Below are positions 14,871-35,912 of a stretch of DNA of 64,000 nt, one piece after another. The notes under the pieces were generated by a model. It saw only the letters and a program-made list of their open reading frames with translations, searched no databases and was not told the origin of the DNA. A program made the position numbers and the translations under genes. Within the stretch, counting starts at the first letter, position 1; the number at the start of each line of letters is the position of its first letter. This DNA comes from Thermoplasmata archaeon (GTDB lineage: Archaea; Thermoplasmatota; Thermoplasmata; Lutacidiplasmatales; UBA184): assembly GCA_021796385.1 (NCBI GenBank), contig JAJYXQ010000081.1, positions 1,377 through 65,376 of the forward strand, written 5' to 3'.

Positions 14871-16121
14871 TCACGAGGGGAGGAGGCGCTCCAGCGCGCG
14901 AGCGCCCCGTGCCTGGGCTCGGGTCAGGAGACGGGGGGTAACATAGACGGCGAGTCGCCATGGAGATGGGGAACGACCAACCAGACGGGAAAGGACTGGG
15001 TCGCGGGCCAGCAAACGATAGCACTGGCCACCTTCTCCGATCATTCGTACATCGTCCCCCGGAAGTTCGAGGCGCGGGGGTATATCGACCAGCACCTCTC
15101 CTGGAACCCCCTTCAACTGATGGGCAAGGTCGTCCTCCAGGGTCCGGCGCTCGGAAGGATGGTTACGATAATGGTCGAGACGCCGTAAGCTCCCCGCTTG
15201 CGACGTGAAAGCGATCTTGTACAGGACCCGGGATACCAGACGGGAGGATATCTCCCGGGAGATCCCGCTCGTATTCGAGAGCGCTGTGAGCAGTTGTCCG
15301 TCGGTCCCCGAGAGCAACTCCTCACCGATCGAAGGAAACTCGGGATGACGTTCCACGGCGGAGAGCAGCATTGTTTCCGCGATCCGCACGGTCTTGTTGA
15401 AGTAAACTGAGGAATACATGAGGGAGCGACCCAAGAGGAAACCCTCCACGGCGGCCCGCCCCTTCTCGAAGAATGCCACATGGTCATCGCGCAATCCGAG
15501 CGTCGCAAGGATGCGGCTCATGTCGATGACCCCATGCGCCACGCCCGTGTAATGTGCATCGCGCAACATGTAGTCTAGGCGATCGGCGTCGATCGTGCCA
15601 TGCAGCAGCTCCCGCAAGTAGGCCTTTCCCGGTGTGCGCGCTCCCAGGAGCCGCACCACGCTCTGGGGATTGACCTGGTGCTTCTCCAGCACCTCGGGTA
15701 TCGACGGGGCACGGTATCCTTGGATGCCCGCTCCAAAAGATGCCATCTTGAACGGGACGTTTCCTCGGATCAGTTGGCCCGTTCGGTCCTCGTGGTTCTC
15801 GCCGGTGGATTCCACGAGGGCGGGCTCCAAGCTGTGGGAGAAAGGGGTATGGCCGAGGTCATGGAGGAGGGCGGCGATCTCGAGGGCGAGCGCCTCTTCT
15901 GAGGGTCGGCCAAGACGGGAGGCCATTTCTCGGACCACCCAGCGGGTCCCGAGAGAGTGCTCCAACCGGGTATGAGAGGAACCGGGAAAGACAAGATGGG
16001 CCATTCCCGTCTGCCGGATACCCCAGAGCCGTTGCACGAGCGGATGGCCCATGAGCTCCAGCATGACCCCCTGAAGCGGGATCGAACCGTGAATTGGATC
16101 GTAGATGTACGTGGTCTTCAT
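14871..16121 (-). CDS. HD-domain phosphohydrolase, SAMHD1/YwfO-like dNTPase
   Basis: DPIHG, QRLWGIRQTG, HTRLEHSLG, LLHDLGHTPFSH, DADRLDY, SSVYFNKT. Confidence 0.9.
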   Translation of the reverse strand: MKTTYIYDPIHGSIPLQGVMLELMGHPLVQRLWGIRQTGMAHLVFPGSSHTRLEHSLGTRWVVREMASRLGRPSEEALALEIAALLHDLGHTPFSHSLEPALVESTGENHEDRTGQLIRGNVPFKMASFGAGIQGYRAPSIPEVLEKHQVNPQSVVRLLGARTPGKAYLRELLHGTIDADRLDYMLRDAHYTGVAHGVIDMSRILATLGLRDDHVAFFEKGRAAVEGFLLGRSLMYSSVYFNKTVRIAETMLLSAVERHPEFPSIGEELLSGTDGQLLTALSNTSGISREISSRLVSRVLYKIAFTSQAGSLRRLDHYRNHPSERRTLEDDLAHQLKGVPGEVLVDIPPRLELPGDDVRMIGEGGQCYRLLARDPVLSRLVGRSPSPWRLAVYVTPRLLTRAQARGARALERLLPS

Positions 16122-16141
16122 GAAACGTGGGGAAGGTCGTG

Positions 16142-16732
16142 TTAGTCTTCTCCAAATTCCCTAGGAGGAGGTACCCTCCGGGGCTTACGACTCCGGCGCG
16201 GCCGGGGGGGAAGGAGCGTTCCCACCATCCCGAGGATAAGGCCAAGGACGGCGAACAGTTCCCAGATGACCGTGAACTCAGGCATGACATTCCAGGAAAA
16301 TGTCACTGAGACGCCGGTGGTGGAATTGGTGAACAGCATGACGCTGGATGCAGTCGGTAACCAGACCGAAAGCGTGCCTGAGGGACCTCGGCCGACGGCG
16401 TACCAGGGGTAGGCGAGTCGGGGACCGACCGTGGGGGATGCATTGTAGTCCTGACACGTGAAAGTGCTGCATTGCACGATCTCCACCCACGTGGATGCGT
16501 TCCCCCCTGTCCACGACACCGTGGCGGGGGCGGAAGCAGGCAGGCAATAGGAGGGGCTCGGTGTCGAGGAGGGAAGGACCTGGGGACAGTACAGGATGAC
16601 CGGCCCCCTAGAGGACCCAACGGGTCCCGACGCATACAGCGAGAAAGTCTGGGAATAGGGCAGCGGAACGTAGATGAAGGTCAGCATGAGCATGAGAAGG
16701 ATCACCGCGGGAACGGTCCAGCCCGGGCGCAT
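16142..16732 (-). CDS. Hypothetical membrane protein (N- and C-terminal TM, Cys-containing outer domain)
   Basis: GGAG-type RBS before ATG, two hydrophobic segments, co-oriented with neighbours. Confidence 0.65.
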   Translation of the reverse strand: MRPGWTVPAVILLMLMLTFIYVPLPYSQTFSLYASGPVGSSRGPVILYCPQVLPSSTPSPSYCLPASAPATVSWTGGNASTWVEIVQCSTFTCQDYNASPTVGPRLAYPWYAVGRGPSGTLSVWLPTASSVMLFTNSTTGVSVTFSWNVMPEFTVIWELFAVLGLILGMVGTLLPPRPRRSRKPRRVPPPREFGED

Positions 16733-16762
16733 GCTAGCTCCTCTCCATAGACGCTTGCCCCT

Positions 16763-17368
16763 TCATTGCGTCCAATCTCCACCATCTGATCCTGGAGGGG
16801 CCGGGACCATGGGGCCCTCCTCAATGCTCTCAACATTCTCCGAAGTCTGCGGTGGCTCGTCCTCGCGCTTCTCGGTGGGGTCTTTCAATGCGATCCCAAC
16901 CACGGTCAAAATGAGCCCTGCCACAGCGATGACGATCACATAGAGCGAATCGAGGGCAGAGTATGGCACTGTGGCTCGGTACTGGGCTTCGGTGGCCGAT
17001 GTGTAGATGACGAGGGCCTGACCGGCTCCCATAGTGAAGGTGACGGACCCCGAGAACGCATGGGCGACCACGATGGGCGTGGCACCGGCGCACGCGGATA
17101 GCACGCTGGATGAACAAAGAACAAAAGCGATCGATGAACCAGCCGGAAGGTTCTGGTAGGCCACGGTCACGGGGAACGAACCCGTGATACTGTAGGCATT
17201 GCCTGGCAGGGTGATGATGGTGGGGGACGTCCCCGGCGCACCTCCGCTTGAACTCGAAAGAGTACCGCTCTGGAGCACCGAAGGCGCAGCGAAGAAGGCG
17301 GCGGCCACGACCCCCATCACGAGCAACATTCCGGGAACGGCGAGAAGAGTTCGCAAGGAATATCCCAT
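16763..17368 (-). CDS. Hypothetical membrane protein, probable paralog of 16142-16732
   Basis: Same two-TM architecture, C-S-x(3-5)-C motif and GLIL.xVG C-terminal TM. Confidence 0.65.
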   Translation of the reverse strand: MGYSLRTLLAVPGMLLVMGVVAAAFFAAPSVLQSGTLSSSSGGAPGTSPTIITLPGNAYSITGSFPVTVAYQNLPAGSSIAFVLCSSSVLSACAGATPIVVAHAFSGSVTFTMGAGQALVIYTSATEAQYRATVPYSALDSLYVIVIAVAGLILTVVGIALKDPTEKREDEPPQTSENVESIEEGPMVPAPPGSDGGDWTQ

Positions 17369-17383
17369 CTTGAGAGTACTTAG

Positions 17384-17397
17384 GGCTTTATAAAGCC
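17384..17397. promoter_or_regulatory. Palindromic TATA box shared by divergent genes (bidirectional promoter)
   Basis: GGCTTTATAAAGCC is a perfect 14-bp palindrome; TTTATAAA core about 19-24 nt from the ATGs at 17368 (-) and 17418 (+). Confidence 0.7.
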
Positions 17398-17417
17398 GTC
17401 ATCAATGCCCGGCCACC

Positions 17418-18422
17418 ATGGAGGTTGAGGAGCGCCATGCCCTCACATTGAAGGGGACGAGCGAGGTGCTGGTCCCGGACGAACTCGGGCAACTGCTGGC
17501 CACGAAGGAACACCCCAAGGTGTACATTGGATTCGAGCCTAGCGGACCGTTCACTGTGGGTCAGCTCGTCACCATCTCGAAGATCCTTGACCTCGAGAAG
17601 GCGGGTTTCGTCGTCACGGTCTTCCTCGCCGACTGGCATGCGTTCATCAACGACAAGCTAGGAGGGTCCATGGAACGGATCACTGCGGCCGGGAAAGAAA
17701 TGGAGCGGGTCATCCGGGTCCTGGGGGCCGGGAGCGGGGTCCGATTCCGATGGGCGAGCGAGCTGATCGGGAACTCAGACTATTGGAGCCGGGTGATCCG
17801 TTCGGCCAAAGCCATGTCCCTGGCCCGCGTCCGGCGGGCAATGACAATCATGGGACGAAACGAGGCGGAGGCAGATATGGATTCCGCCAAGCTCTACTAC
17901 CCGGCGATGCAGGTGGCCGACATCTTTGAACTGGGCGTGGATGTTGCCTACGGGGGGATCGACCAGCGCCGGGCTCACGTGCTTGCCCGGGAGGTCGCAG
18001 CGAAGTACGGTTGGCCGGTGCCGATCGCCTTGCACACCCCGCTCATCTCGTCCCTCAAAGGTGGAGGGCGAATGAACGCTGGAGAGGAGGGTTTGATGGA
18101 ACGGAAGATGTCGAAGAGCGACGCCACCACCGCAATCTATGCGACGGATTCCGAGGAGACCATCCGCGCCCGCATCCAATCCGCCTACTGTCCGGTGAAG
18201 GAGGTCGAGGGCAACCCCATGATTGAATTGGCCCTCCATCTTATCCTTCCGTGGCAAGGAAGACTCGCCATCGAGCGCTCCGAGAAACACGGGGGGGCCC
18301 TCGAGTTCGCTCGTGGAGAGGACCTTCTTGCCGCGTGGACGACCGGCAAGCTGCACCCACTTGACCTAAAGTCCGGTGTGGCGCGCAGCCTAGTCGAGAT
18401 CCTCCGTCCCTTGAGAGCGTAG
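17418..18422 (+). CDS. tyrS: Tyrosyl-tRNA synthetase, archaeal type
   Basis: YIGFEPSG, LADWHAFIN, YPAMQVADIF, GGIDQRRAH, KMSKS, RIQSAYCP, KLHPLDLK. Confidence 0.96.
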   Translation: MEVEERHALTLKGTSEVLVPDELGQLLATKEHPKVYIGFEPSGPFTVGQLVTISKILDLEKAGFVVTVFLADWHAFINDKLGGSMERITAAGKEMERVIRVLGAGSGVRFRWASELIGNSDYWSRVIRSAKAMSLARVRRAMTIMGRNEAEADMDSAKLYYPAMQVADIFELGVDVAYGGIDQRRAHVLAREVAAKYGWPVPIALHTPLISSLKGGGRMNAGEEGLMERKMSKSDATTAIYATDSEETIRARIQSAYCPVKEVEGNPMIELALHLILPWQGRLAIERSEKHGGALEFARGEDLLAAWTTGKLHPLDLKSGVARSLVEILRPLRA

Positions 18423-18426
18423 GAGT

Positions 18427-21400
18427 TCAAGACTTCCCTTCGGGACGAGCCGCTCCACCCGCTCGAACGGGTCTTCGAGCGGCCCGGAGGACTTGGGGCC
18501 ATGCCGGAAGCAAGGCCACCAGCAAGAGTATCGCTCCTGCGGCCAACGTGACCTCGAGGGTGAATTCTTGTTGTTGCTGCTCTATGCCGGATAGGGTAGG
18601 CCCAAGCGGCGGACTGCCTTGGCCAGAACCATAGACGTAGAACACGAAACCGAAGGGTACATGATCCGGCGCGAGGGTCAGGAGCGTGTGAAGCCCGGGA
18701 AGTACGGGAAGAGGATAGTTCGGTGGAACGAAGGCTCCATCCAGATACACCGCCCCCGAACTGCTCGTTTCGATCGTCCAGTTGACCAATGGGGATAACC
18801 GCCACTTCTCCAGGGGGGTGGGACAAGGCCCGACAGCGTAAAGGTCGGGAGTTCTAGGAATGAAGGATATGGCGTTGGGACAGCCCCCCGTGTTCAGGAC
18901 CCCCTCGGGAAAGGTCGAGGAAACGTTATAGAATGTGATGTTGCCAGCTTCTTGCCCCGCGACCGCGACCGTGTTCCCCATGAGGGAAAGCCCTTGGGCG
19001 CCGTCTCCCGCGGTCTGGACGGCAGAAACTGTGCCCAGCGTCCGGTTGATCCAGTCGAGCTGGCCGGGGGACCAGATGCTCACGAGGAGATATCCCGGGG
19101 TAAGGAGGAGGTTGCTAGGGGGCCCTGAGGCATACCACGTGGAAATGAGTTGTCCGGTTGTCTCGTTGTAGATTGGAATCGAAGCACTGCCCGAGGCGGC
19201 CACGTACAAGGTCCCAGAAGCGGGGTCGACAGCGAGAGCGACCGGTGCCGCACCGACGGCGTAGGTGGTAACGAAACCCCCCGTGGAACTGTTGAGCACC
19301 GTCACGTTGCTCATCGCAAGCGAGGAAACGAAGGCAAGATGGCGCTTCTCATCGAAGGCGATGGCATCCGGAGCGTAGCCTACGATGTCAGCACCGAGGT
19401 AACGCGGAGGAGAGCCGTTAAGGAGGGCAAAACGGGCCACGGAAGATGAGAGGTTTCCGGGGCCGGTCTCGGCACACCATAGCTCTGCTGCGGCAGGATC
19501 GATCGCAAGGTACCGAACCCCGGCTGAGGCGGACGGTAGCGAAAAGTTCCAAGTTTGGCCAGACGGATTGAAGGCGTGAATCCATGACGAGTTCAATGAC
19601 CCGACGTACGTCGTCCCGTTCCTTGGGTCGATACTGATGGATGCAGGAAGTGAGCCTGCGGGAAAGCTCCCGACGGGGACAGCCGGCGCAACGACGGGAG
19701 GTCCTCGGGCCCAGATCGTGACATAGTTCCAAGAGAGCGAATTACCGAATGTGGTAGAGACATGGTAGTTCTGTTGGATGTACCACCCGATCACTGGATG
19801 CATGATCTCCAATTCGGAAGTCCGGCTACCCACCACCACGTAGGGTACATAGGTACGGTTCCACGCCTGGAGTAGGGCGTCCATGCTCGGGGCGAGGTGG
19901 AATGGGTCGTAGGGATACGTGCTTTGATCGTTCGGGTACGACACGTAGGCCATCTGGTCAAGCACAATGGAGAGGTTGAGAAGGTTGGGTCTGTCTGCTG
20001 CGGCCAAAAATATGTCGTCTGCCGAGAACATGACGGACTTCGATGTGGTGTTGGTTGAATCAAGGTAATGCGCGACTTGAGCAACTAATTGCGGAGAATA
20101 CGTCCGTTGGATGACATTGTACTGGGGGAGGTCATAGGCGAGCGGCTCGTTGTAGGGATTCGAGGGCCCAAGGACTTCCACCGCAGAGAACACTCCCGCG
20201 CCGACCATCGTGGTGACCAGTGCGAGGGCGACCATGGCAGGTACCCAGCGTCCGGGGTTCCCGGCAACAGGGGTTGCTGCAGAAGGGGTACCTGCCTCAA
20301 GGAGCGGACGCGCCACACGGTCCGCCCACCAGATCCCGGCGAGCACGCTGAGGGGCACGCTCACGTCGGTGAAGTAGTTCGTAAGGAATTCAGGATAGAC
20401 GACTACGTAGAAGAAGAGGTAAAGGACGGCCCAGAGCCCCAGGAAAATCAACGCGAGCGATCCCATTTTTGGTCCCGGTCGCGCAGAGAACTCAATGTCG
20501 AAGGCTGTGACCGCCCAAAGCACTAGTTGGACCACGAGCAGCCCACCTGTTGCCACAAGATCATATTCCCCTTGGCCCCAATCGTAATTTACGGGTCCGG
20601 TGAAGAGAACGAAGCCGAGCAGGCCGGCGCTCAGGAGGAGCGAAAGTAGCGAAAGGTCCCGATGTCCCCGCGCGGCCAAGACCCCCGCAGGGACCGCCAC
20701 GGCGGGTATGATCAATAGGGGCTCATAGACCCAGAGGTAGTACAGAACGCTCAAGTGGTATTGTAGAGGGATCGATTGTTCCACGTACGCGGACCCCAAA
20801 CCGAACTGGTCCCACATCCAACCGAAAGACGTGAGGGAAGCGAAGATCCCGAGCACGGTCACAAGCGGGATTGCAAGACCCAGGAGGAAAATCGCAGAAC
20901 CCTTGAGCGTACCACCGTTCGAGGTGTTACGGGGCGAGGAAGGATGACGAACAATCAGCGCGGAGAGAATCAAGGGAGCTAGCAGCACGGCGTCACGGCG
21001 GGTGAGTTCGGCGATCCCGAGCAAGAGTCCGATCGCGAGAGGTACCCGGACCGGGTCCGGTCGGGACCTGCGAAGCAAGAGGTAGGCGATCCACGCTAGG
21101 GGCAAGGCGGCAAGAGGTTCGAGAAGAACCGTTGAAAAAGCATACACGTCGAAGGGATTGAATAGGAAGATCCCCGCCGCGGCGATCCCGGCAGACTTTC
21201 CACCCAAATCCCGGCCAAGAAGATAGACGGCTACAGCCGTGGCCATGTCGACAAGCACCATCTGCATCCGAGCGACAAAGAGCTGAGGACCGAACACGGC
21301 TACACCGGCCGCAAGATAGTACAGTATCACCGGTTCCCGGGCGGCAAAGGTAACGAAAGGGATGCCCCCCCGGACGATCGCGTCCGCAGCGTTCAGGTAC

Positions 21401-21540
21401 GCCCCTTCATCCATGTTGTACCATTGGATTGCCGCCACCCAACCATACAGCCCCATGGCGATGAGGAGGAGACCAGCGAATACCCCATTCTCGCGGACCC
21501 CTCGTAAGAGTCGACCCAAGCTAGGCAATTTAAGGGACAT
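18427..21540 (-). CDS. GT-C (ArnT/PMT, GT39/83-like) multi-TM glycosyltransferase fused to a YVTN/YncE beta-propeller and C-terminal TM anchor (copy 1)
   Basis: MDEGAY luminal acidic motif, 11-13 TMs, propeller blades VGYAPDAIAFD, VGAAPVALAVD; start placed at ATG 21540 (21579 possible) rather than 21843. Confidence 0.8.
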   Translation of the reverse strand: MSLKLPSLGRLLRGVRENGVFAGLLLIAMGLYGWVAAIQWYNMDEGAYLNAADAIVRGGIPFVTFAAREPVILYYLAAGVAVFGPQLFVARMQMVLVDMATAVAVYLLGRDLGGKSAGIAAAGIFLFNPFDVYAFSTVLLEPLAALPLAWIAYLLLRRSRPDPVRVPLAIGLLLGIAELTRRDAVLLAPLILSALIVRHPSSPRNTSNGGTLKGSAIFLLGLAIPLVTVLGIFASLTSFGWMWDQFGLGSAYVEQSIPLQYHLSVLYYLWVYEPLLIIPAVAVPAGVLAARGHRDLSLLSLLLSAGLLGFVLFTGPVNYDWGQGEYDLVATGGLLVVQLVLWAVTAFDIEFSARPGPKMGSLALIFLGLWAVLYLFFYVVVYPEFLTNYFTDVSVPLSVLAGIWWADRVARPLLEAGTPSAATPVAGNPGRWVPAMVALALVTTMVGAGVFSAVEVLGPSNPYNEPLAYDLPQYNVIQRTYSPQLVAQVAHYLDSTNTTSKSVMFSADDIFLAAADRPNLLNLSIVLDQMAYVSYPNDQSTYPYDPFHLAPSMDALLQAWNRTYVPYVVVGSRTSELEIMHPVIGWYIQQNYHVSTTFGNSLSWNYVTIWARGPPVVAPAVPVGSFPAGSLPASISIDPRNGTTYVGSLNSSWIHAFNPSGQTWNFSLPSASAGVRYLAIDPAAAELWCAETGPGNLSSSVARFALLNGSPPRYLGADIVGYAPDAIAFDEKRHLAFVSSLAMSNVTVLNSSTGGFVTTYAVGAAPVALAVDPASGTLYVAASGSASIPIYNETTGQLISTWYASGPPSNLLLTPGYLLVSIWSPGQLDWINRTLGTVSAVQTAGDGAQGLSLMGNTVAVAGQEAGNITFYNVSSTFPEGVLNTGGCPNAISFIPRTPDLYAVGPCPTPLEKWRLSPLVNWTIETSSSGAVYLDGAFVPPNYPLPVLPGLHTLLTLAPDHVPFGFVFYVYGSGQGSPPLGPTLSGIEQQQQEFTLEVTLAAGAILLLVALLPAWPQVLRAARRPVRAGGAARPEGKS

Positions 21541-22225
21541 CAGACAAGAGGTAAAGGATTGGCCCCGCTTTAACCTCATCGAGGGATGGGCGAGGTCGCG
21601 GGGACAGAAATCTGCCTTCATCTGGAAGGGATGGGATGAACGACATAGGGAACGCCCTTTTCGAATCCATCTAGGGAGGGTTGTGACAGTAGCCCTCCGG
21701 TACGTCATTGGGCACAATGTGATTTTCGGATTACGTTGAGGTGAGGGAGGACACGAACCGAGATGGAGATCGATCTCTCTTAGCGTACCATTTGCATGAG
21801 ACTCTCGGCAGGAGTTCCCATGCAAGCCCCTCACCACAATCACTTTGGGATCAAGGTCTCCAACCCGACTCCCGAAACCGGTGGATTCTCAAGGACAGGG
21901 ATGAATGGGATGTGAGGTCCCCTCTCGGTCCTATCTTCGCGCGTATCCCCTTCGCAGGTATCGGGGTGTCGTTTTAATGCAAGGGGAGGAACCGCTTTCC
22001 TTCATCGACCGACAGGGCACGTCGTGGACACTCAAGTTCCGTGTCCTGCGTCTCCTGTCCCATTAAAGTCTGCCGAAAGACTGTAATAACTTCATGTTGG
22101 AGTTGGAGAAGAAATTCCTCCGCCAAGCGATAGCACTCTGCGTGGCGAATAGGTCTGGGGAAATTCCGCTACGGAACCTTGGACTAATGTACGGCAAGGA
22201 CATCTCCATCCATCCCCACAATTGA

Positions 22226-22933
22226 ATGTCTGAGAGTTCTTGGAATTGCGATGTCGGCTTGGCCCTGGAGTCTCGAGCAGAAGCATTGGCCGTAAGGCTT
22301 AGTCGAACTATCCTCTCATTGACAGCCCACCCAAGATTCTCACTGGATGTCGGTGGAGGGGATGGCTCTCTCACGAGGTCCTTGGAGAAGCGAACGCTGT
22401 CACGCTACATCCTGATCGATCCTGGATTGACACAGGAGCATTCGGCAACTTTCATTACGTCAGTTCGGGGATCGGCCTTTGCACTTCCCTTCCAAGAGAA
22501 CACATTTGATATTGTAACGCTGGTGAGTGTCTATGAGCATCTGACCCCACCGGCCAAGCGATTGCAGGCCCTCAAAGAGATACGGCGCGTTCTCAAACCA
22601 GGGGGATTTTTGGTCGGTCAGATTCCCAACATGAACTTCCCCATAGAGATCCACAGTAAGCTCCCTTTGATCCAGTTCCTACCCGATCCGATTGCGCGTT
22701 GGTACTACCGTGTGATGGCACCAATCCCTCCAGAACGTAAACAGAAGTATGGCATTCGATGGTATCGCGTCACCCCTGCCGACCTTCGACGTGAGACCGA
22801 AGTCAGTGGTTTCCTGAAAGGGAGGGTGTGGGCTGCAAATCTCCCTAAGAGTGCGATCCCTCGCCTATTCCGACCGTTCATGTTTGTTACTAAGGTCATT
22901 CCACTCAATTGGGATTTCTACTTCCAGAAGTAG
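22226..22933 (+). CDS. Class I SAM-dependent methyltransferase
   Basis: LDVGGGDG motif I, GSAFALPFQENTFDIV, EIRRVLKPGG. Confidence 0.88.
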   Translation: MSESSWNCDVGLALESRAEALAVRLSRTILSLTAHPRFSLDVGGGDGSLTRSLEKRTLSRYILIDPGLTQEHSATFITSVRGSAFALPFQENTFDIVTLVSVYEHLTPPAKRLQALKEIRRVLKPGGFLVGQIPNMNFPIEIHSKLPLIQFLPDPIARWYYRVMAPIPPERKQKYGIRWYRVTPADLRRETEVSGFLKGRVWAANLPKSAIPRLFRPFMFVTKVIPLNWDFYFQK

Positions 22934-23040
22934 ATTGAACTCGGCATCGAATGAGATGGGCACGACCCACCCTCGTCCGTGGCACGCTCCCGACTCTGTC
23001 TAAGCGTACCCGGTCAGGCACCGAGATAAGTAGAGAGAAT

Positions 23041-26000
23041 CTATGGGGGGGATGGGGGATGGCGAGGTTCCTGAACGCGCGAAGTGGGCGTACCATTCCG
23101 GGCAGGCACACTATAGTATTGCGGGCAGAACACTAAGACCATCGCACCTACGAAGAATGCTCCTGAGGCAGCCACCACTTCCCATACGAAAGCGGCTTGC
23201 AAGGAGCGGATCCCAGACAAGGAGGGGCCGGTCGTCAGGTACCAATCTAAAGATACCGTCCCAGGAAGTATCGTAAAATATCTCAGGCCAGGGAGGAAGC
23301 CCGCACGGTAGGTCCCCACTTCGAGGCTTTGGGGCCACACTGCCAAGGTCACGGGAAGTGAGTACGTTGCAGCCACTTCACCAAATACTGTTGCCCTAGC
23401 GCCCTCCGGCCCACTCAAGTTCACCAGAGTAGGCGGGGGGAGGTGCCACAGAAGAGCAAGGTTTCCGCATGTCCCCGTGGCCGACAGCAACTGTTGCTGG
23501 GGTAGCCAAAACACGGCGCCGGGACAGTCTGATACTACGAATGACCCCATGGTCTCGAGGGTGGAAGCCGAGAGTGCCATTACAACGTTCTGTTGAGCCG
23601 ATGGCACCAGTACCTCGTTCATGGAAGGAACGGCATCAAGGCTGTTGATGCCTCGTCCTACAAAGGTAGCGTTTTCTAATTCAAGCGACCCGTTCGAAAA
23701 GAATCCCACCTTGTAGACCCACCCTATCCACCAAGATACCAAAATAGAGCCATTGACCGAAACAATAGAATAGGGGGGAAAGGTTAGAGAATCTGACTGG
23801 ATGGGGCGTCCGGTTCGGTCATTAAGCAGTGTCACAGTGTTAGGAGCAATGGTCGAGACGTAAAGGGTCTGCGAGGTCGAGTTCACGGTAACTCCGGTAG
23901 ATGAGCCGGGGAGGGAAGTCTCCCAAGCTACCCTCCAGTTCGTGCTGTTTGGGAGGGAATCATACGCGGTGACTTCCCCCGATGTCAACGAAGTCACGAA
24001 CACCATGTGCGCACCACTGTCGGAGGCAAACCCTGTGGGACCACTTCCACAGGGAAGGACCTCTGGAGAACCACCTCCCATCGGGATTATCTCGACTTGA
24101 GCCGTCAACGTGCTGCCGACCCACACACTTCCGAAGAAGATTCCGAGAGTTCGTGCCCCCGGGAATGCAAGCGGAATAACACTCCAGTTTCCGGTCACCT
24201 CATCGTAACGGGTCAGCATTGAGGAATTTAGCGATGAATAATACAAATCCGGGCCGTACCCGACCACCGCAGTAGGCACCGAAGATAGGGACCGACTCAC
24301 ATTCAGATGAAGGCTGTTCACCGGTGGAGCCCCTCGTTCATAGACCACTACAAGGTCCAACGAAAGAGGATCCCCAAAAGTAGTTACTGGATGGTACTCC
24401 GTCTCAATATACCATTTCAGTAGATTAGAGTACGATAGCGCTTCCTCCGTTAGCGGCCCGGCCACGAACCAAGTGAGATTGGTTTCATTCCAGTAGCTTA
24501 ACAACCCGTCGATCGAAGGAAGGAATCCAGAAGGCGATCCTGGAAATGGCGACCCAGCCGGGGACTCATTGAAATGCATGTAGCTCACATAATCATCCAG
24601 ATACAACGCGATCTGAGGGGAGATTGAACGGCCCGCGTCATCGGCGAAGACCGAGTCGAACGTAAATATCGTGTCGCGAGGCTGCATTACTGCGCGAAGG
24701 TAACTCCCGACCGCTTGGATCTCTGAGGGAGGGTCACGGTAGATCGAGTGATCCGGTAGGAAGGATGTTCCGGGAGCATTGTAAGGGTTCGATGGCCCTA
24801 ATATCAAAGTCGCAGACATGGCTGAGGTCACTACTAGGAGAAACACGAGGGTGATCGCGGGGACACGCTTCCGTAAGGAGCGTCGAACAACCGCTTTGTC
24901 AGACAGGGAATCGTCGACCTGCGCAAATGCGGGAGGGAACAAAGTCGTAAACCATATGCCGAAGAGGATTGAGAGGGGAGCCAACGCATCAGCGAAATAA
25001 ACGGAGAATGCCTCTGGGCGTGCAAAAAAGTCCACAAGCAAGAATGCCGATCCCCAACCTACAAGCAGAAAGAATACGCCCCCATCTATTGGTCTCGACC
25101 CTGGCTTTTCTAGTCCTTCTTTGGCCAGTACCAAAAACCAGAGAACAAGGTTCAAGAACAGGATTTCGGAAAGATAAGGGGTCAGGAACTCGTCAAGTCC
25201 CCATTGGACCTCAAAGGGATAGGCAGCGAACAATCCCGCCACGAACGATAGGGAGATCATTTGGATCACACTTGCCGCTCCCAGATGGCCCTTTGAACGG
25301 AGCGACCGAATTGCGAGCGCGGACGGAGCAACAAATATAGGAGGAACTGCAAACAAAATATACCCAAACACCTCCAACTTGGCCGGTAGAGTTGGAACAT
25401 ACTGATAGGTAGAGGCATGCGTAAGGCTAGCAAGTAAAACCCACGTTAGTGACGTCTTGGAAGCCACATAGAGGAAGAATCCTCCAACACCGATCATTAC
25501 AGGTAGGACGAGGGCCAGGGTTGACAATATTCGGGCCCGCCAACCTCGTTCCGCGAAGATAATCCAAGCCAACCACACTACCGTCACAAGAAAGGCACTG
25601 CGCCGCGACATTATCGCGAGGGCCAAGAACCCACCAGATAGTGGATAATTCCAAAGGCTCACCTTCCATCGACGTCGGAGCAAGAACCACAGGCTAGTTG
25701 CAAGGAAGAACGCAGCCAAGGGCTCTTCAAGGATTGTGGGACCTTGGAAGGCAGCCAAGGGTGCCAGCAAATAGATAGCGGCCGCAGCGAGCGAGGCCAT
25801 TTCTGGCTTGGAATGGGCGAGGCGCCTCGCCAGCAACGCGAGCAAGAGCGCCGTGGCGAGATTGAACGCCACAATGATTTCTCGCCCGACCAATAGATTG
25901 TATCCGAACATGTTTAGCACAGGAGCCATCAACAGTGGAAGCAGTACCTCTGGCCTGGCGGGAAAAGTAACCAAAGGGAAGCTACCCGTCGCTATCATCA

Positions 26001-26328
26001 GGGAGGCTTGGATGTACGCCCCTTCGTCGGCTTGTCCCCAAAGATAGGTGGCCACGAGGCTCTGGACGATTCCACCTATCAGAAGTGTAAATCCAAGGGC
26101 AGCCGGATAGCGGAACTTCCCTAGGCGCCAGTCCGAGCTGAGGGAGCGCACCCTGTGGCCGGTTCCTGCATGGTCGAACACGGGGCGATTTCTGTGACGG
26201 TCGGTCGAAACAGCCCGCGGATTCTCACGCTGAGGGGTATCAATCCGCTGCCGACTTGCATCCGAACGAACACTTGGGGCATGAACGCCTGCCTCGGTGG
26301 TCGAGGTTCTTTCCGGTCTACTCGACAT
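23041..26328 (-). CDS. GT-C (ArnT/PMT-like) glycosyltransferase fused to a beta-propeller and C-terminal TM anchor (copy 2)
   Basis: ADEGAY, LEEPLAAFF, LGPSNPYN shared with copy 1; propeller blades CGSGPTGFASD, PGSSTGVTVN, VGRGINSLDA. Confidence 0.8.
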   Translation of the reverse strand: MSSRPERTSTTEAGVHAPSVRSDASRQRIDTPQRENPRAVSTDRHRNRPVFDHAGTGHRVRSLSSDWRLGKFRYPAALGFTLLIGGIVQSLVATYLWGQADEGAYIQASLMIATGSFPLVTFPARPEVLLPLLMAPVLNMFGYNLLVGREIIVAFNLATALLLALLARRLAHSKPEMASLAAAAIYLLAPLAAFQGPTILEEPLAAFFLATSLWFLLRRRWKVSLWNYPLSGGFLALAIMSRRSAFLVTVVWLAWIIFAERGWRARILSTLALVLPVMIGVGGFFLYVASKTSLTWVLLASLTHASTYQYVPTLPAKLEVFGYILFAVPPIFVAPSALAIRSLRSKGHLGAASVIQMISLSFVAGLFAAYPFEVQWGLDEFLTPYLSEILFLNLVLWFLVLAKEGLEKPGSRPIDGGVFFLLVGWGSAFLLVDFFARPEAFSVYFADALAPLSILFGIWFTTLFPPAFAQVDDSLSDKAVVRRSLRKRVPAITLVFLLVVTSAMSATLILGPSNPYNAPGTSFLPDHSIYRDPPSEIQAVGSYLRAVMQPRDTIFTFDSVFADDAGRSISPQIALYLDDYVSYMHFNESPAGSPFPGSPSGFLPSIDGLLSYWNETNLTWFVAGPLTEEALSYSNLLKWYIETEYHPVTTFGDPLSLDLVVVYERGAPPVNSLHLNVSRSLSSVPTAVVGYGPDLYYSSLNSSMLTRYDEVTGNWSVIPLAFPGARTLGIFFGSVWVGSTLTAQVEIIPMGGGSPEVLPCGSGPTGFASDSGAHMVFVTSLTSGEVTAYDSLPNSTNWRVAWETSLPGSSTGVTVNSTSQTLYVSTIAPNTVTLLNDRTGRPIQSDSLTFPPYSIVSVNGSILVSWWIGWVYKVGFFSNGSLELENATFVGRGINSLDAVPSMNEVLVPSAQQNVVMALSASTLETMGSFVVSDCPGAVFWLPQQQLLSATGTCGNLALLWHLPPPTLVNLSGPEGARATVFGEVAATYSLPVTLAVWPQSLEVGTYRAGFLPGLRYFTILPGTVSLDWYLTTGPSLSGIRSLQAAFVWEVVAASGAFFVGAMVLVFCPQYYSVPARNGTPTSRVQEPRHPPSPP

Positions 26329-27844
26329 ATCCCCAAACTCTCAGCCGAGCGAGCAACTCAGGGTTGATGGTCGCCTCGGGCGCCTTGGCGCCCAACATCT
26401 TCCGAACCACCTGAGCTGCAGAAAGGGAGAGATCCTTCAGGTTCGGGTCGCTCTCGCTCCATATATTGTGCTCTTCTCGAGTATCGGTAAGGATCCGGTA
26501 GGCCCGGAAGGACTCCTGAGCTGAGCAATCCATAACGAGTTTGTAGTCGCCTGCGTACGTCGCCACCTGAATAGGAGTTCCTTGAGAACTACCCTCCCGG
26601 GACAAAGAGTACTGCGTGATGTACCCGTAGCTGTCTGAGATTGTGAAGACAGGTCCTTCTCGCGGACGTGTACCGAGGTCTTGGAGTGGAAGAGCATAGG
26701 AGGGGGGTGTCCCACATTCCATCCTCAGCTCTCTTTTTACGGTAGGAACTACATCCACCAGGCTGGCCCAATCATCGATAGTTGACCCGCCATTGCGGCC
26801 CTCTGGGAAGCGCACCCACAGCGGCACTCTCACCCCTTCTTCTCCTACACCAAAGATGTGGAAAAGTTGGCCGTGCTCTCCGAACGTTTGGCCGTGATCA
26901 CTAGTGAGAATAAGCATCGTGTTGTCCCAACGTCCCGAGTCTTGGAATACCTTGACTATCCGCCCTATCCGATTGTCTATGTCCCGAATATGAGTGCGAT
27001 AGAGTTCATGAAGCACGTGCAGCATCTCAGGGGTATTCCGGCTCGAACCCGAGATCCATCCTTGCCTCTCCTGGCTGGTCTGAGCGTATCTCACCCATTC
27101 GCGGAACCCATGAACAACTTCCTCCGAGGAGAAGTACGGTTCATGGGCATCGAGCAAGTTTATCATGCAGAACACGGGTTGCTGAGAGGGTTGCTTCGAA
27201 ACCCAACGGACCAACTCAGGTTCTATCCACGGTGAGGTTACCCCCACTCTCGTTGAACCCTTAAGTTTCAAGAGGACCCGATGGGCAGCGTCCAAGATGT
27301 AAGTGCGCTCCAAAATCTGAGGGGACAGACGTTGAAGCAAAGGGGATGGGCCGGTCCAATCGCGGTTGGTGGCCCACTTGCGGAGAAGGCGTGTCACGGA
27401 CTTTCGGGCCCATCCGGGAGGGAGGGGCTGGGAAAGTCCGATGGGATATCGGAGGTAAGGTTCCCACCACCCCCCCCAGTCGGCCATGTCCATCCCCTGC
27501 GTCAGCCCAAAGTGCCGGCTGATCAGAAAATTTGCTGACAACGAAGCGCAACTGTAGCCCACGTTATGGAGTTGGGTAGCTAACGTTGGGATGTTCTCGG
27601 AGAGATGGATGTCGCCGACACTATGCACACCATGATCCCATGGGTAGAGGCCGGTGAATAAGCTAGCGTGGGATGGAAGGGTCCATGTTGATGGGCTTAC
27701 CGCCCCAGTGTATCGAATACACTCACCCGCGAGCTCTCTCGCAAAAGGAAGATTGGGAGGAGATTCACTCGGGTTGAAGTCTGCGGCACGCACACAGTCC
27801 ATGACGACAAGAAGAATGTTGGGCCGAACCGAAGTAGACGGCAT
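26318..27844 (-). CDS. Sulfatase-like / alkaline-phosphatase-superfamily protein with Thr nucleophile (copy 1)
   Basis: PNILLVVMDCVRA, WTLPSHASLFTGLYP, NLLDAHEPY, LTSDHGQTFGEHG, VSLVDVVPT-like segment, C-terminal RLRVWGY. Confidence 0.85.
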   Translation of the reverse strand: MPSTSVRPNILLVVMDCVRAADFNPSESPPNLPFARELAGECIRYTGAVSPSTWTLPSHASLFTGLYPWDHGVHSVGDIHLSENIPTLATQLHNVGYSCASLSANFLISRHFGLTQGMDMADWGGWWEPYLRYPIGLSQPLPPGWARKSVTRLLRKWATNRDWTGPSPLLQRLSPQILERTYILDAAHRVLLKLKGSTRVGVTSPWIEPELVRWVSKQPSQQPVFCMINLLDAHEPYFSSEEVVHGFREWVRYAQTSQERQGWISGSSRNTPEMLHVLHELYRTHIRDIDNRIGRIVKVFQDSGRWDNTMLILTSDHGQTFGEHGQLFHIFGVGEEGVRVPLWVRFPEGRNGGSTIDDWASLVDVVPTVKRELRMECGTPPSYALPLQDLGTRPREGPVFTISDSYGYITQYSLSREGSSQGTPIQVATYAGDYKLVMDCSAQESFRAYRILTDTREEHNIWSESDPNLKDLSLSAAQVVRKMLGAKAPEATINPELLARLRVWGYVE

Positions 27845-28568
27845 TGGAACTAAACTTCCGGCAGAAATGAATCCAGATTATGGTGTCGACATCCACTTCC
27901 GAGCCAAACCCAGCTTGCCTCCGCATACCTCGGATCGTACATTGATTTCTGACAGCTTTCGACCCACTTGAAAGTCTTCGTGAGACCGCCGCTCCCCATT
28001 ACGTTCCTGGCAAAGACGGCCCGCATGATGGTTTGCAACCGAGCAAAGATTCGGTGTGCGGGGGAGAAAGTTGGCCCTTCTGCTTTCTCCTCCCTTCATC
28101 TACCCATCGTCGCAACCCCTACGCGTAGAAAGCCTTTGGGGTTGCGACGGTCATACGTCGTGTCAGGACGCACCCTGCCTTGTCGCCGAGAATATCGGCT
28201 CAAGCTGGTTTTCCCTCAAGAGAAAAGAACCTGCGCTTTATTACAGGGCATGATGTGCCCCATCGATCTGCAGAACACAAATGCCTGCGAATCACCGGAA
28301 TCGGGGGCTCCCTTCCCAATCACCTCCCAGTAGAACCTATCGTTCAACGGATGATGGTACATGGGGAGTTTGTGACACACCTCGGGGAATCGGGTGACTA
28401 GGGAAAGCAGGGATGGTATGTCCATAAGCGTCCCGAAGTTCCGCTCCTGCAGATGAATTGGGCGTCTTGGCGGCTTTAAACACCGAGCACGAGGAATCCT
28501 TGCTTGAAGTTCGTGGAAGAGAAGCTTAATTAGCCAGGGCTTGCTGAACCCCATAGGGGCGGGCCACA

Positions 28569-29594
28569 TTGGCACGCGTGTTGCTAATCTCTTTCTTGGG
28601 AGTGATTGTCGTTTGGGGAATCACCGCCGTGGTGGTGTTCTTCAGTGTGGTCCTGGGAGTGTTACCGAGCCTCATCCATTTGTTCGAGACCGGTCACTGG
28701 GTAGATCCCAAGATCCTCCTATATCCCTCTCCAGAGCATGCTTGGATCCTTTTCGCCTCGGTGCTATTCTTCGTCCTATTGCCCGCGCTGATACTCTTGC
28801 TCCTGTTCCTCGGAGTTGTTCGTGGGGGAAGGCGCAAGACCGGGATTGGAACTCAGTGGTATGAAATCACGAACCGGCGAGTTGCCGTGGTGCTTACGGC
28901 GTTCGATGATGAAGAGTCTGTCGGACAGGCAGTCGATCAATTTCGTCGGGCGGTCCCTCAGGGAATCGTCTACGTCGTGGACAACAACTCCCGCGACCGG
29001 ACCGCGGAGGTGGCCCGCGAGCATGGGGCCATCGTGGTGCGAGAAAGCAGGCAGGGATACGGTTACGCCTGTATGAAGGGCTTAAGGACGGCGCTCAGTG
29101 ATGCGACAAACGAAATCATCATCTTGGCCGAGGGGGATATGACCTTCAACGCCAGGGACACTCTAAAGATGTTACCCTACCTCGAGGATTGCGACATGGT
29201 CATCGGCACTCGGACCAATTACGTACTCACCAACCCTGAATCTCAGATGGATTGGTTCCTAAGTTGGGGAAACCTGTTCTTAGCGCTATTGGTCCGCCTT
29301 CGCTTCTGGAATAGTTGGTTCTTAGGCAGGGTCCAGCTCACCGATGTTGGATGCACATTCCGTACCATTCGGCGGAGTGCGCTCGAACGGATGATCGATG
29401 ACCTCACAATAGGAAGCATGGAGTTTTCTCCCCACATGATTCTCGTAGCTCTGAAGAACGGGCTCTCGATCATCGAGGTGCCCATTCGGTTCCAAGCACG
29501 GGTCGGACGTTCAAAGGGAGCGGGAGCAAGTCGGCTACGTGCCATTCGTATCGGATTGCAGATGTTGAAAGAGATCACGTTCCAACGGTACTAA
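28569..29594 (+). CDS. GT2 glycosyltransferase, polyprenol-phosphate glycosyltransferase (DPM-like), with N-terminal TMs
   Basis: VVDNNSRDRT, QGYGYA, EGD at the DxD position, LTDVGCTFR, IEVPIRFQARVGRSK; TTG start. Confidence 0.85.
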   Translation: MARVLLISFLGVIVVWGITAVVVFFSVVLGVLPSLIHLFETGHWVDPKILLYPSPEHAWILFASVLFFVLLPALILLLLFLGVVRGGRRKTGIGTQWYEITNRRVAVVLTAFDDEESVGQAVDQFRRAVPQGIVYVVDNNSRDRTAEVAREHGAIVVRESRQGYGYACMKGLRTALSDATNEIIILAEGDMTFNARDTLKMLPYLEDCDMVIGTRTNYVLTNPESQMDWFLSWGNLFLALLVRLRFWNSWFLGRVQLTDVGCTFRTIRRSALERMIDDLTIGSMEFSPHMILVALKNGLSIIEVPIRFQARVGRSKGAGASRLRAIRIGLQMLKEITFQRY

Positions 29595-29688: not shown

Positions 29689-31203
29689 TCAAACGTATCC
29701 CCAAGCTTGCAGGCGATCCTCGACAGACTTGTTTACCCTCTTCGGTTTGGTCGCGAGCTGTTCAAGGGCAGACACCGCCGCTCGCTCCAACTCGCGAACG
29801 TCCTGTCGATAGGGTGCGTTGCCATCCACTACTTCTCCTTCGGGTCCACCCGTGCCTAAGTCACGGCAATCACACGTTCCACCCCCATCCTCGCAGATCA
29901 CCTTCCATCGGTCACGATATGCTATCACCCGCGCCTTGGACAGGGCACGGAGTTGGTTGGGATTGATCCACCGGCGCGAATGTTCCCATACCACTCCGTC
30001 GCTGAGAGCCAAAGTAGGTGCTCCGCGATCTTCAGTCACCAACCTGGAAAGGTCCACTCCAAAGTGCCCGATCTGGTGCGCAGAACCTGAGGCTCTGAGG
30101 ATGGTTGGGGCGATGTCTATCAAGCTAGCGATGCCGATTCCGACCCGACCCCGTCCCTCCCCTCCCCCAGGTCGGACCCATAACGGGATGCGAAGCAATC
30201 CCTCCGATTGTCCGTAGAGGTGGTAGAGCCGTCCCGCTTCCCCGAACTGCTGTCCGTGATCGCTTGTGATGAAAAGCCATGTGTCTTCCCATCTGTCGAA
30301 GCGACGTAGGATCTCGACGAATCGGCCAATCCTTTCGTCGAGCGTCTTGACCATCGAGCGATACAGCTCTCGCAGAATCCGCAGTTCCGACTTCGATGGT
30401 TTCCACTTCCCGTCGAGCGTCCGGACGTCGTCTTGGCGGACACGCGCCTTCCGCCACCAGTCGAACAGGGATTCACCCTCAAATGAAAGAGGAAAGTACG
30501 GTTCGTGGGCGCTCAGCAGATTGATAAGTCCGAAGAACGGTACTTCCGAGGGAAGTTGCGAAATTTGCCGCTCGAATGTATCCTCCACCCAAGGGCAACT
30601 GGACATCGTTCTCGCGACTTGAGGTGAAAAGACCTTCGTAATGGCTAACCCGGTCAGATCCATGACGGGAGGAAAGCGATCAAGCAAGTGGGTCACGCTC
30701 TGAAGTGGACTGCCTGTTGCCAATCGCAGGGCGTCCATCCGCGAGGCGGTCTTGCCCGCGGATTGCAATTGACCCTTTGCGAATTCATACGACGGACGGG
30801 TCGAAGGTATCCTGAATCTATGCTCCCACCATCCCCCCCAAGCAGCATAGTCGAACCCCGGAGTGAATCCAAACTCATCGTTGAGAAAGCCATTACTAGA
30901 GAGCAGTAACGTATGGTATCCCAAGGCCTGTAGATATTGACCGACACGTGGGATTGAGGGGTCGACCCTGAGAGAGCCGAACCCATGAGTTCCATGCTCC
31001 CAAGGATACATCCCAGTTATGAGGGAGGCATGCGAAGGAATCGTCCAGGTATCAGGAGAGACCGCCGAAGGAAAGAGCCAACACTCCTGCATCAACCTTT
31101 CAAGGCACTCCATGCCCGGGACGGGACTCGTACCTCCGGGGAAGTCACTTGCGCGAACGGCATCCAGGACGATTACCAAGAAGTTAGGACTCGTCCGAGT
31201 CAT
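29689..31203 (-). CDS. Sulfatase-like / alkaline-phosphatase-superfamily protein with Thr nucleophile (copy 2)
   Basis: PNFLVIVLDAVRA, WTIPSHASLITGMYP, HEPY, TSDHGQQFGE, SLIDIAPT, RLQAWGY; ATG 31203 preferred. Confidence 0.85.
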   Translation of the reverse strand: MTRTSPNFLVIVLDAVRASDFPGGTSPVPGMECLERLMQECWLFPSAVSPDTWTIPSHASLITGMYPWEHGTHGFGSLRVDPSIPRVGQYLQALGYHTLLLSSNGFLNDEFGFTPGFDYAAWGGWWEHRFRIPSTRPSYEFAKGQLQSAGKTASRMDALRLATGSPLQSVTHLLDRFPPVMDLTGLAITKVFSPQVARTMSSCPWVEDTFERQISQLPSEVPFFGLINLLSAHEPYFPLSFEGESLFDWWRKARVRQDDVRTLDGKWKPSKSELRILRELYRSMVKTLDERIGRFVEILRRFDRWEDTWLFITSDHGQQFGEAGRLYHLYGQSEGLLRIPLWVRPGGGEGRGRVGIGIASLIDIAPTILRASGSAHQIGHFGVDLSRLVTEDRGAPTLALSDGVVWEHSRRWINPNQLRALSKARVIAYRDRWKVICEDGGGTCDCRDLGTGGPEGEVVDGNAPYRQDVRELERAAVSALEQLATKPKRVNKSVEDRLQAWGYV

Positions 31204-34676: not shown

Positions 34677-35912
34677 ATGAAACACGAACCGGGACGCGAG
34701 GCAACTTTGAACGGAGGAGAGATTAGGACGGCCTTAGTGGCTCCGACCCCCTTCTTTACCGAAGGAGGAGCTAGTTCCCGGATTCTCGGTGAAGCGAGGG
34801 GCCTCCGTTCACTCGGCGCCACGGTGAGGATATTGACGTATCCCCCAGGGCGGAATTGGCCTGGCTTGGAGATTCTTCGCCCGAGAGCCTCCCAGCGAAG
34901 GATGGGAATCGGATTCCACCCTGCCCGCATCCTTTACGACTTCGAGCTACTGAAATTCCTCTTAGCACTACCGATGCGGAGCGGTGAGCATCTGCACGTG
35001 TTCCTCCACGAAGGGGCGGCGCTCGGTCTTCTCAAGGGAAGACTCACTCAACGTTCGTTCCTATTGGACCTCCAAGGTTCGCTAGTGGAAGAGGTGGGTC
35101 GTACTTTCAGATTTGCCCGAGAGGGATGGCTTGGAGGCTTGGCACGTCGGATTGAAATCGCCTTAGAACGCTCAGCTTCCCATGTGATTGTGAGTTCCCC
35201 GGGCCTGTTGAGCGCCATTTCTGCGCGTGACCGGATACCCCCAGACCGGTTACACTTCATCCCCGATGGTGTTGCGACTGAAGACTTCACCCCCAGCGAA
35301 CGGCAGGATCCAGAGCTTAGATCCAGGTGGCGATTACAATTCGGCTTGACCGACGATGATGTGGTAGCGATCTATGTGGGAGGACTCTCCCCAGAACAGG
35401 GTATAAATGATCTGATTCGCCATGCACCTAAGATGATCCACGAATGTCCGAAACTTTGCTTTCTACTGTTTGGGGTCCCAACACAGTTGCACCGCTTCGA
35501 GGACTACGTTGCCCAGATTCGGCGGGCCGGACTCGGTAAAAGACTTCAGATGCCGGGACCACTGCACTATGAGGATCTTCCCTTGGCCCTGGGTTCTTCC
35601 GAAATTGCCCTCACCTGGAAGCATTCCCCACCAGAGGAGGCAAATGGCAAGATCCCGCATTATATGGCCGCGGGGCTTCCGAGCGTGGCTCTCCGACTAC
35701 CCGCCAGTGAATACTACTTGGGGCACAATGGTGAATTTGGAGGAGTACTCTCTCAAACAGTCGCAGAGGCTGTTGATGCGGTGGTCAGCCTGGCGGGAGA
35801 TCGTTCTCAACGGTTACGTCTGGGGCGCTTGGCGCGGAAGTCTGCAGAAGACCGGCTTTCTCTAAAAGTTGCCGCCAGTGAGATATTACGAATCTACAGG
35901 GAACTCGATTGA
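34677..35912 (+). CDS. GT4 (GT-B fold) glycosyltransferase
   Basis: PTPFFTEGGASSRI, IPDGV, IYVGGLSPEQG, EEANGKIPHYMAAGLP. Confidence 0.88.
   Translation: MKHEPGREATLNGGEIRTALVAPTPFFTEGGASSRILGEARGLRSLGATVRILTYPPGRNWPGLEILRPRASQRRMGIGFHPARILYDFELLKFLLALPMRSGEHLHVFLHEGAALGLLKGRLTQRSFLLDLQGSLVEEVGRTFRFAREGWLGGLARRIEIALERSASHVIVSSPGLLSAISARDRIPPDRLHFIPDGVATEDFTPSERQDPELRSRWRLQFGLTDDDVVAIYVGGLSPEQGINDLIRHAPKMIHECPKLCFLLFGVPTQLHRFEDYVAQIRRAGLGKRLQMPGPLHYEDLPLALGSSEIALTWKHSPPEEANGKIPHYMAAGLPSVALRLPASEYYLGHNGEFGGVLSQTVAEAVDAVVSLAGDRSQRLRLGRLARKSAEDRLSLKVAASEILRIYRELD

Follow-up and report, generated by a model that had tools for sequence, protein, structure and literature searches.

A paired archaeal membrane protein family that joins a GT-C glycosyltransferase fold to a YVTN-type propeller held by a second membrane anchor

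Can a membrane glycosyltransferase carry its own extracellular propeller, and what would such a propeller do for it? The question is raised by two neighbouring genes, here called A and B, in a 64,000-nucleotide stretch of DNA (the window; positions 1,377 to 65,376 of the forward strand of contig JAJYXQ010000081.1, assembly GCA_021796385.1, Thermoplasmata archaeon). An earlier reading of the sequence (the original prediction) had described their products as two paralogous proteins of about 1040-1095 aa, each with a glycosyltransferase fold C (GT-C) enzyme at the N-terminus, a YVTN/YncE-type beta-propeller, a short beta domain and a C-terminal membrane anchor, and had suggested that the propeller selects acceptors. 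The source is an uncultured acid-mine archaeon with a genome of 2.28 Mb (92% complete), and the window is archaeal in content, with topoisomerase VI A/B-like, tyrosyl-tRNA synthetase (TyrRS)-like and Rad50-like proteins, named by reading their translations rather than by a library scan. At least two studies contributed metagenomes, of mine drainage and of sediment, that hold near-identical sequence. Since an independent contig of 21.6 kb, taken from a public sequencing run on mine drainage, is colinear with window positions 16000-28000, with 1 base difference, the A/B pair is not an assembly artefact.

The frame of gene A is open up to position 21843 (open reading frame (ORF) 18427-21843), and its start was set at MSLKL (21540) because the orthologs begin there. 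The resulting protein of 1037 aa aligns end to end with the 1095-aa product of gene B in BLASTP (28% identity over 1047 columns, E 9e-63). Both contain DEGAY, LLEPLAA/LEEPLAA, LGPSNPYN, PS.D.LL..WN.T and GP.LSGI followed by a hydrophobic helix. The paralogy and the shared motifs of the original prediction (DEGAY, E-P-L-A, LGPSNPYN and P..D.LL..WN.T) were thus recovered, the motifs falling mostly on invariant columns. In the numbering of A, residues D44, E45, E141, G458, P459, W560, N561 and T563 are invariant in both 15-member alignments of the family, and N461 and G980 in the first of them. An AlphaFold model of full-length A (predicted local distance difference test (pLDDT) 76.5, predicted template modelling score (pTM) 0.58) contains, in this order, membrane helices (residues 8-457), an alpha/beta domain (458-612), 28 strands forming seven four-stranded blades (621-914), a seven-stranded sandwich (919-975) and a terminal helix (983-1021). 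The last two correspond to the short beta domain and the GP.LSGI-containing anchor that had been read from the sequence. Identity between A and B is highest in the first outer loop (50%) and falls to 27% in the core, 24% in the propeller and 15% in the sandwich.

We examined the N-terminal part by profile and by fold. An hmmscan of A and B at E<=1 returned PMT_2 (PF13231, gathering threshold 26.1 bits) alone. Matches to PF02366, to the MIR domains of the large luminal loop and to the PMT_4TMC C-terminus, which mark true PMT enzymes (GT39), were absent, as was TPR, so that the NCBI name 'glycosyltransferase family 39 protein' is a loose label. Protein A scores 40.9-41.1 bits, above the threshold, whereas B is borderline (21.8 bits as a protein, 27.6 bits in a six-frame search of the genome). 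PMT_2 matches all 15 aligned family members at E<=0.1, and the source genome encodes no other PMT_2 protein besides A and B. No ArnT family model was found for either protein in an NCBIfam scan at E<=1, and sequence and profile searches of the PDB gave no GT-C match beyond a weak one to glycosylphosphatidylinositol mannosyltransferase 1 (E 0.003). Since Foldseek returned propellers only when the full-length model was used, residues 1-615 of A were modelled separately (pLDDT 80, pTM 0.85). This model gave 21 Foldseek matches at E<=1e-3. The top match in the PDB was ArnT (5f15; E 2.2e-8, template modelling scores 0.54/0.60, 661 columns), followed by STT3/AglB (3e-8 to 1e-5) and by ALG12/ALG9, Pmt4 and AftA (<=7e-4); AftB was also retrieved. 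Because the alignment with ArnT spans 661 columns, it includes the outer domain of A, and the set of enzymes retrieved indicates a core of GT-C fold with an ArnT-like outer domain. According to the model, therefore, the N-terminal part of these proteins is a GT-C enzyme fold, as originally proposed.

The putative catalytic site lies in the most conserved part of the core. The pair D44-E45 directly follows the first membrane helix and is invariant in 15 of 15 members. Acidic pairs have been described in ArnT (D55/E56) and Pmt1 (D77/E78) (PMC7801869), and D44/E45 of A correspond to both, a correspondence of position made without residue-level superposition. Residues D44, E45, E69, E141 and R182 are retained in both paralogs, and R68 is invariant in the first alignment. 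We also considered that one or both proteins might be pseudoenzymes, and judged this unlikely because A and B each retain every invariant core residue.

The propeller of A and B is of the YVTN/YncE type, with seven four-stranded blades. By sequence, profile and fold, the top match for the propeller of A is 1l0q, the YVTN domain of a Methanosarcina surface-layer (S-layer) protein (phmmer 4e-7, profile 2.8e-20, Foldseek 7.5e-13), and YncE, Lp49 and a PQQ-ABC propeller match as well; no curated family threshold was reached by the YVTN propeller of either protein. Both 1l0q (Methanosarcina mazei, YVTN propeller with PKD) and Escherichia coli YncE have the same seven four-stranded blades, but they are soluble or surface-layer proteins that, unlike A and B, have no attached enzyme. 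About 90 YVTN-propeller segments in the source genome, in about 25 large ORFs (up to 2840 aa), match the family profile. Propeller-bearing surface proteins are thus a heavy investment of this organism, and the fused propeller of A and B probably derives from them.

The position of the propeller relative to the membrane was assessed from sequons and charges. Past the last core helix, A contains 15 N-glycosylation sequons, against 4.5+-1.9 in shuffled sequences (none of 2000 shuffles reached 15), and B contains 12, against 4.4+-1.9; the membrane cores contain 1 and 0, respectively. The outer part is thus about three times enriched over expectation. The N- and C-termini of both proteins are basic, which fits an in/in topology. 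On these two grounds the ectodomain of A and B is placed outside the cell. It is tied to the membrane at both ends, and the doubly anchored extracellular propeller of the original prediction is supported. In the model, the linkers between outer domain and propeller and between sandwich and last helix are only about 5-10 residues long, from which the propeller and sandwich are inferred to be held near the membrane, at the side of the catalytic face. One sequon-like element, W-N-x-T (window positions 19852-19863 in A and 24481-24492 in B), is invariant in 15 of 15 members; either the enzyme itself is obligatorily N-glycosylated there, or the motif serves some function and is a sequon by coincidence. 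A second sequon, at N750 in the propeller of A, is present in 14 of 15 members.

The propeller and sandwich could be purely structural, embedding the enzyme in the surface layer or mediating assembly of A with B or with another partner, with the second anchor serving the same end and no part in acceptor choice. These are indeed the least conserved parts of the protein, with 22% (propeller) and 18% (sandwich) identity between clades, and a general adaptation to the envelope may apply, as AglB of this lineage also has a very large extension (2187 aa). Against this, a number of propeller positions are invariant or almost invariant in the two clades alike (G674, W688, D730, N750, G796, G880 and P888), together with a Cys pair of equal 19-residue spacing (887/906 in A, 935/954 in B), and the C-terminal module is swapped among relatives in the manner typical of specificity domains. 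We consider a solely structural role distinctly improbable.

Evidence for such swapping came from relatives that have no propeller. These proteins of 566-863 aa match the family profile only over positions ~12-620, i.e. the core and outer domain; one carries a concanavalin-like 3-keto-disaccharide-hydrolase domain instead of the propeller, and one, from a Hodarchaeota archaeon, is annotated as an ArnT-family enzyme. The module at the C-terminus can thus be exchanged. Full-length relatives were few: 13 for A and 2 for B in word-indexed searches of 5.8 billion proteins, and about 21 clusters in an exhaustive profile search of 1.84 billion representatives (50% identity clusters). The named records are all from 'Thermoplasmata archaeon' metagenome-assembled genomes (MAGs), except for one partial record labelled Nitrososphaerota and one 'bacterium' bin. 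In the latter (JAKBKR01, 'MAG: bacterium isolate DX1.bin10'; loci L010 and L011), one fragment matches gene A at 100% identity and an ortholog matches it at 85%, with coverage of about 1x. These contigs belong to an archaeal group, the Thermoplasmata, so that the bin, in which two strains are represented, is mislabelled or mixed. Among 401 sampled Thermoplasmata genomes, 6 have the family; all belong to three genera of the window's own GTDB family, many members of which are without it. The literature searches for a GT-C-propeller fusion returned nothing relevant. The order of domains is not that of any characterised enzyme, in line with the original prediction, and the family is rare and has no name.

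With the propeller-less relatives as root, the tree of the family resolved two deep clades, A (Shimodaira-Hasegawa-like approximate likelihood ratio test (SH-aLRT) support 93) and B (SH-aLRT 100). The fusion with the propeller is thus older than the duplication. Two copies lie within a few kilobases of each other in 5 of the 6 positive genomes, although the composition of the set varies: there is one gene of A type and two of B type at locus L001, one of each at L012 and at L013, and two A-clade paralogs at L014 and at L017. Pairing of family members is thus usual but not obligatory.

The restricted distribution bears on the class of acceptor. The two proteins might elongate a membrane lipoglycan or glycolipid comparable to the phosphatidylinositol mannosides, lipomannan and lipoarabinomannan of mycobacteria, with a GT4 enzyme priming the lipid inside the cell, the GT-C enzymes extending it outside from a polyprenyl-phosphate sugar and the propeller holding the chain. 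The pairing of GT4 and GT-C genes in this locus resembles the succession of PimA/PimB and then PimE/Mpt, and a doubly anchored ectodomain that hugs the membrane would suit a lipid-anchored acceptor. Membranes of Thermoplasmatales are dominated by a mannose/glucose tetraether lipoglycan (PMC12448462), a further point in favour of this explanation. However, the family is absent from 395 of the 401 sampled genomes and patchy within its own GTDB family; A and B are therefore not the general lipoglycan synthase of the class, and we regard a lipoglycan role as improbable.

The features of the locus are collected in Table 1.

Table 1. Coordinates of genes A and B, their parts and the neighbouring genes in the window
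Feature	Position	Strand	Basis
Gene A: GT-C / periplasmic domain / 7-bladed YVTN propeller / beta-sandwich / C-terminal transmembrane helix, 1037 aa	18427..21540	-	ORF scan and ortholog starts
A residues 1-457: polytopic GT-C membrane core; PMT_2 match at 70-223	20170..21540	-	Pfam and Foldseek
A Asp44-Glu45: invariant acidic pair, first outer loop, putative catalytic site	21406..21411	-	15/15 in both alignments
A residues 458-615: alpha/beta extracytoplasmic domain, starts GPSNPYN, holds invariant W560-N561-x-T563	19696..20169	-	Model, alignment
A residues 616-914: seven-bladed YVTN-type beta-propeller, 28 strands, conserved Cys887/Cys906	18799..19695	-	Model, sequence and fold matches
A residues 915-978: 7-stranded beta-sandwich, weak PEGA-like matches	18607..18798	-	Model, profile scan
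A residues 983-1011: GP.LSGI juxtamembrane segment and C-terminal transmembrane helix, then Arg-rich tail	18508..18594	-	Model, topology
Gene B: paralog of A, same architecture, 1095 aa	23041..26328	-	ORF scan and alignment to A
B parts: core to 510; domain 511-668; propeller 669-962; sandwich 963-1032; transmembrane helix ~1047-1069			Alignment to A
B DE motif, residues 101-102	26023-26028	-	Alignment to A
Class I S-adenosylmethionine methyltransferase between A and B	22226..22933	+	Homolog near the pair in L014
Sulfatase-like (alkaline-phosphatase superfamily) gene, overlaps B start by 11 nt	26318..27844	-	Scan and locus comparison
Membrane-anchored GT2, sub-threshold similarity to AglJ / dolichyl-phosphate hexose transferase / PpgS	28569..29594	+	2.2 kb from B
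GT4 (GT-B) glycosyltransferase	34677..35912	+	Near family member(s) in 7/7 related loci with enough flank

Some of these neighbours recur with the family. In all 7 related loci with enough flank, a sulfatase-like gene directly adjoins a family member and a GT4 gene is close by; given this constancy, the sulfatase homolog belongs functionally to the cassette. The GT2 protein encoded 2.2 kb from gene B is, judging by its sub-threshold sequence similarities, a candidate maker of the lipid-linked sugar donor.

The preferred reading, which we hold tentatively and as somewhat short of evenly balanced, is that A and B are late extracytoplasmic glycan-extension enzymes acting on a glycan already present on a surface protein or lipid. 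It is favoured because the GT4 enzyme, which is cytoplasmic and co-conserved, and the presence of more than one paralog recall the ALG, Mpt and Emb/Aft systems. In the corresponding mechanism, the early steps would be carried out in the cytoplasm by the GT4 enzyme, and those of A and B would be late and extracytoplasmic, like those of AglS, ALG3/9/12, Mpt and Emb. Both proteins would be active GT-C enzymes that take the sugar from a donor presumed to be dolichyl-phosphate-linked and pass it on at the outer surface of the cytoplasmic membrane, with the Asp-Glu pair of the first outer loop serving, by homology with ArnT and PMT, as the catalytic or acceptor-activating site. The outer module, composed of the ArnT-like domain, propeller and sandwich, would be tied to the last core helix and the C-terminal helix; because of the short linkers at both ends it would have to sit near the membrane beside the catalytic face, where it most likely docks the acceptor, taken here to be the existing glycan. 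As old paralogs with their catalytic residues kept, A and B would act one after the other, each adding its own sugar or linkage, possibly within a heteromer of the EmbA-EmbB kind. Selection of acceptors by the propeller is plausible by analogy with the TPR domains of TMTC, the MIR domains of PMT and the carbohydrate-binding modules (CBMs) of Emb, and gains some support from the propeller-less relatives, which carry other C-terminal modules, one of them concanavalin-like.

Several observations weigh against late glycan extension. The arrangement of the domains in the full-length model of A is uncertain (pTM 0.58, compared with 0.85 for the core modelled alone), and binding of proteins is better documented for YVTN propellers than binding of sugars. 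Three-component extracytoplasmic glycosylation systems combine the GT-C enzyme with a dedicated GT2 synthase of the polyprenyl-phosphate sugar and a small GtrA-type flippase, all encoded together. Here, no counterpart of the GT2 gene at 28569-29594 was found in the regions flanking the other loci, and no GtrA-like flippase ORF was found in 27845-28568. Loci L015 and L016 have a single family member, located between the sulfatase-like and GT4 genes, so that a heteromer is not obligatory. Finally, no contigs on this region were found in three small metatranscriptomes of the same study, an uninformative result as to expression.

The known protein contacts of YVTN/WD40-like propellers, which typically bind proteins, and the best match of this one to an archaeal S-layer protein, point instead to protein O-glycosylation in the manner of PMT/TMTC. 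A and B would then transfer the first sugar to Ser/Thr residues of surface proteins, and the propeller would be a protein-recognition platform, perhaps for membrane-proximal Ser/Thr-rich stalks. The core belongs to PMT_2 and has a PMT-like DE motif, PMTs also act as paralog pairs (Pmt1-Pmt2), and double anchoring places the propeller where such stalks emerge. The genome also encodes many YVTN surface proteins, and the gene cluster includes, in the window as in L001 and L012, a PKD surface protein whose anchor is preceded by a Ser/Thr-rich stretch. However, PF02366, MIR and TPR are lacking in A and B, the best fold match is ArnT and not PMT, and the co-conservation of GT4 and sulfatase-like genes points to a glycan built in several steps rather than to transfer of a single sugar. 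We therefore rate O-glycosylation as unlikely, if less so than a role in lipoglycan synthesis. The more specific version, in which A and B are dedicated archaeal protein O-glycosyltransferases whose tethered propeller captures the stalks while the core of a Pmt1-Pmt2-like heteromer adds the first sugar from dolichyl-phosphate, seems to us as improbable as the lipoglycan role. To our knowledge, no enzyme has so far been assigned to archaeal O-glycosylation, and if this version were true, one could be named.

Another candidate role, replacement of a missing AglB, was suggested by the lack of an STT3 match in the organism's own MAG. It was rejected, as an STT3 homolog is present in 32 of 41 relatives (31 above the Pfam cut-off); for the same reason the absence probably reflects a contig missing from this MAG, which is 92% complete. 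The AglB/STT3 homolog of the window's GTDB family lies in a giant frame of about 2200 aa in at least 28 of 41 sampled genomes. In one example (L020:3150-9713, + strand, 2187 aa), STT3 and a weak AglB-core match are followed by several carboxypeptidase-regulatory-like beta-sandwich domains. We also considered GP[ST]LS with the following transmembrane helix as an organism-wide C-terminal sorting signal, and rejected it because the genome contains only A, B and one loose match.

Other genes around the pair are recorded here as observations in their own right. The segment 22000-38000 encodes the methyltransferase, B, two sulfatase-like proteins, two GT2 proteins, a DUF2079 protein, the GT4 protein, a 635-aa membrane protein and the PKD protein. 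Its G+C content (0.53-0.57 over 22-38 kb) is lower than that of the surroundings (0.60-0.65) and, with the patchy occurrence of the cassette among close relatives, makes it look like a variable or exchanged island. The two cytoplasmic-looking 'sulfatase' paralogs (26318-27844 and 29689-31242, both - strand) have T-L-P-S-H and T-I-P-S-H in place of C/S-x-P-x-R, and both also match Phosphodiest at the N-terminus. The 635-aa protein (35894-37801, - strand) is polytopic, has no Pfam or NCBIfam match, recurs in the clusters of L001 (40% identity) and L012 (46%) and may be a further glycan-handling membrane enzyme or flippase. On the other side of gene A, two Ser/Thr-rich proteins of 196 and 201 aa (16142-16732 and 16763-17368, both - strand), each with an N-terminal hydrophobic segment, a C-terminal anchor and no Pfam match, are possible surface glycoproteins; they are kept next to TyrRS and gene A in L011:6672-7802 (97-99% identity).

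Among characterised systems, ArnT (GT83; Cupriavidus metallidurans, PDB codes 5ezm/5f15) shares with A and B the GT-C core followed by an outer alpha/beta domain and the Asp-Glu pair in the first outer loop. Its donor is a polyprenyl-phosphate sugar, as would be that of A and B. However, ArnT is bacterial, ends after the periplasmic domain, with no propeller, sandwich or second anchor, and modifies lipid A. Archaea do not have lipid A, and the likeness is one of fold only. Pmt1/Pmt2/Pmt4 (GT39) and TMTC1-4 belong to the same GT-C/PMT clan, have a DE/DD motif and include the Pmt1-Pmt2 paralog pair. Their added domains are likewise luminal or outer (MIR in PMT, a C-terminal TPR block in TMTC, the closest architectural analogy), whereas the added domain of A and B is a YVTN propeller tied by an extra membrane helix. 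EmbA/EmbB/EmbC and AftD (GT53 and relatives) extend glycans outside the membrane and have GT-C cores with C-terminal lectin-like acceptor-binding domains, as described for EmbC (PMC3044687), and EmbA and EmbB are adjacent paralogs that form a heteromer (PDB code 7bvc). They differ from A in being bacterial, in having CBMs rather than propellers and in lacking a terminal anchor, and their fold similarity to A is weak (E 0.05-0.06). The Haloferax volcanii protein AglS, which we take to belong to the ArnT/PMT-like group, is archaeal and adds the sugar of Dol-P-mannose to a protein-linked glycan on the outer face, the same role as proposed for A and B, but it has neither propeller nor second anchor.

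The combination of a GT-C enzyme with an added acceptor-recognition domain is well established (TMTC-TPR, PMT-MIR and Emb/AftD-CBM), and the present family is small and lineage-restricted, so that its wider impact is limited. Acceptor choice by GT-C enzymes is usually set by an added soluble domain, and A and B would represent a new solution, a seven-bladed propeller clamped by a second anchor, found in old paralog pairs and with a conserved cassette. They offer a compact system in which the presentation of acceptors by GT-C enzymes can be tested, and they are candidates for the glycosylation of cell surfaces in acid-mine Thermoplasmata, a group with barely studied envelopes.

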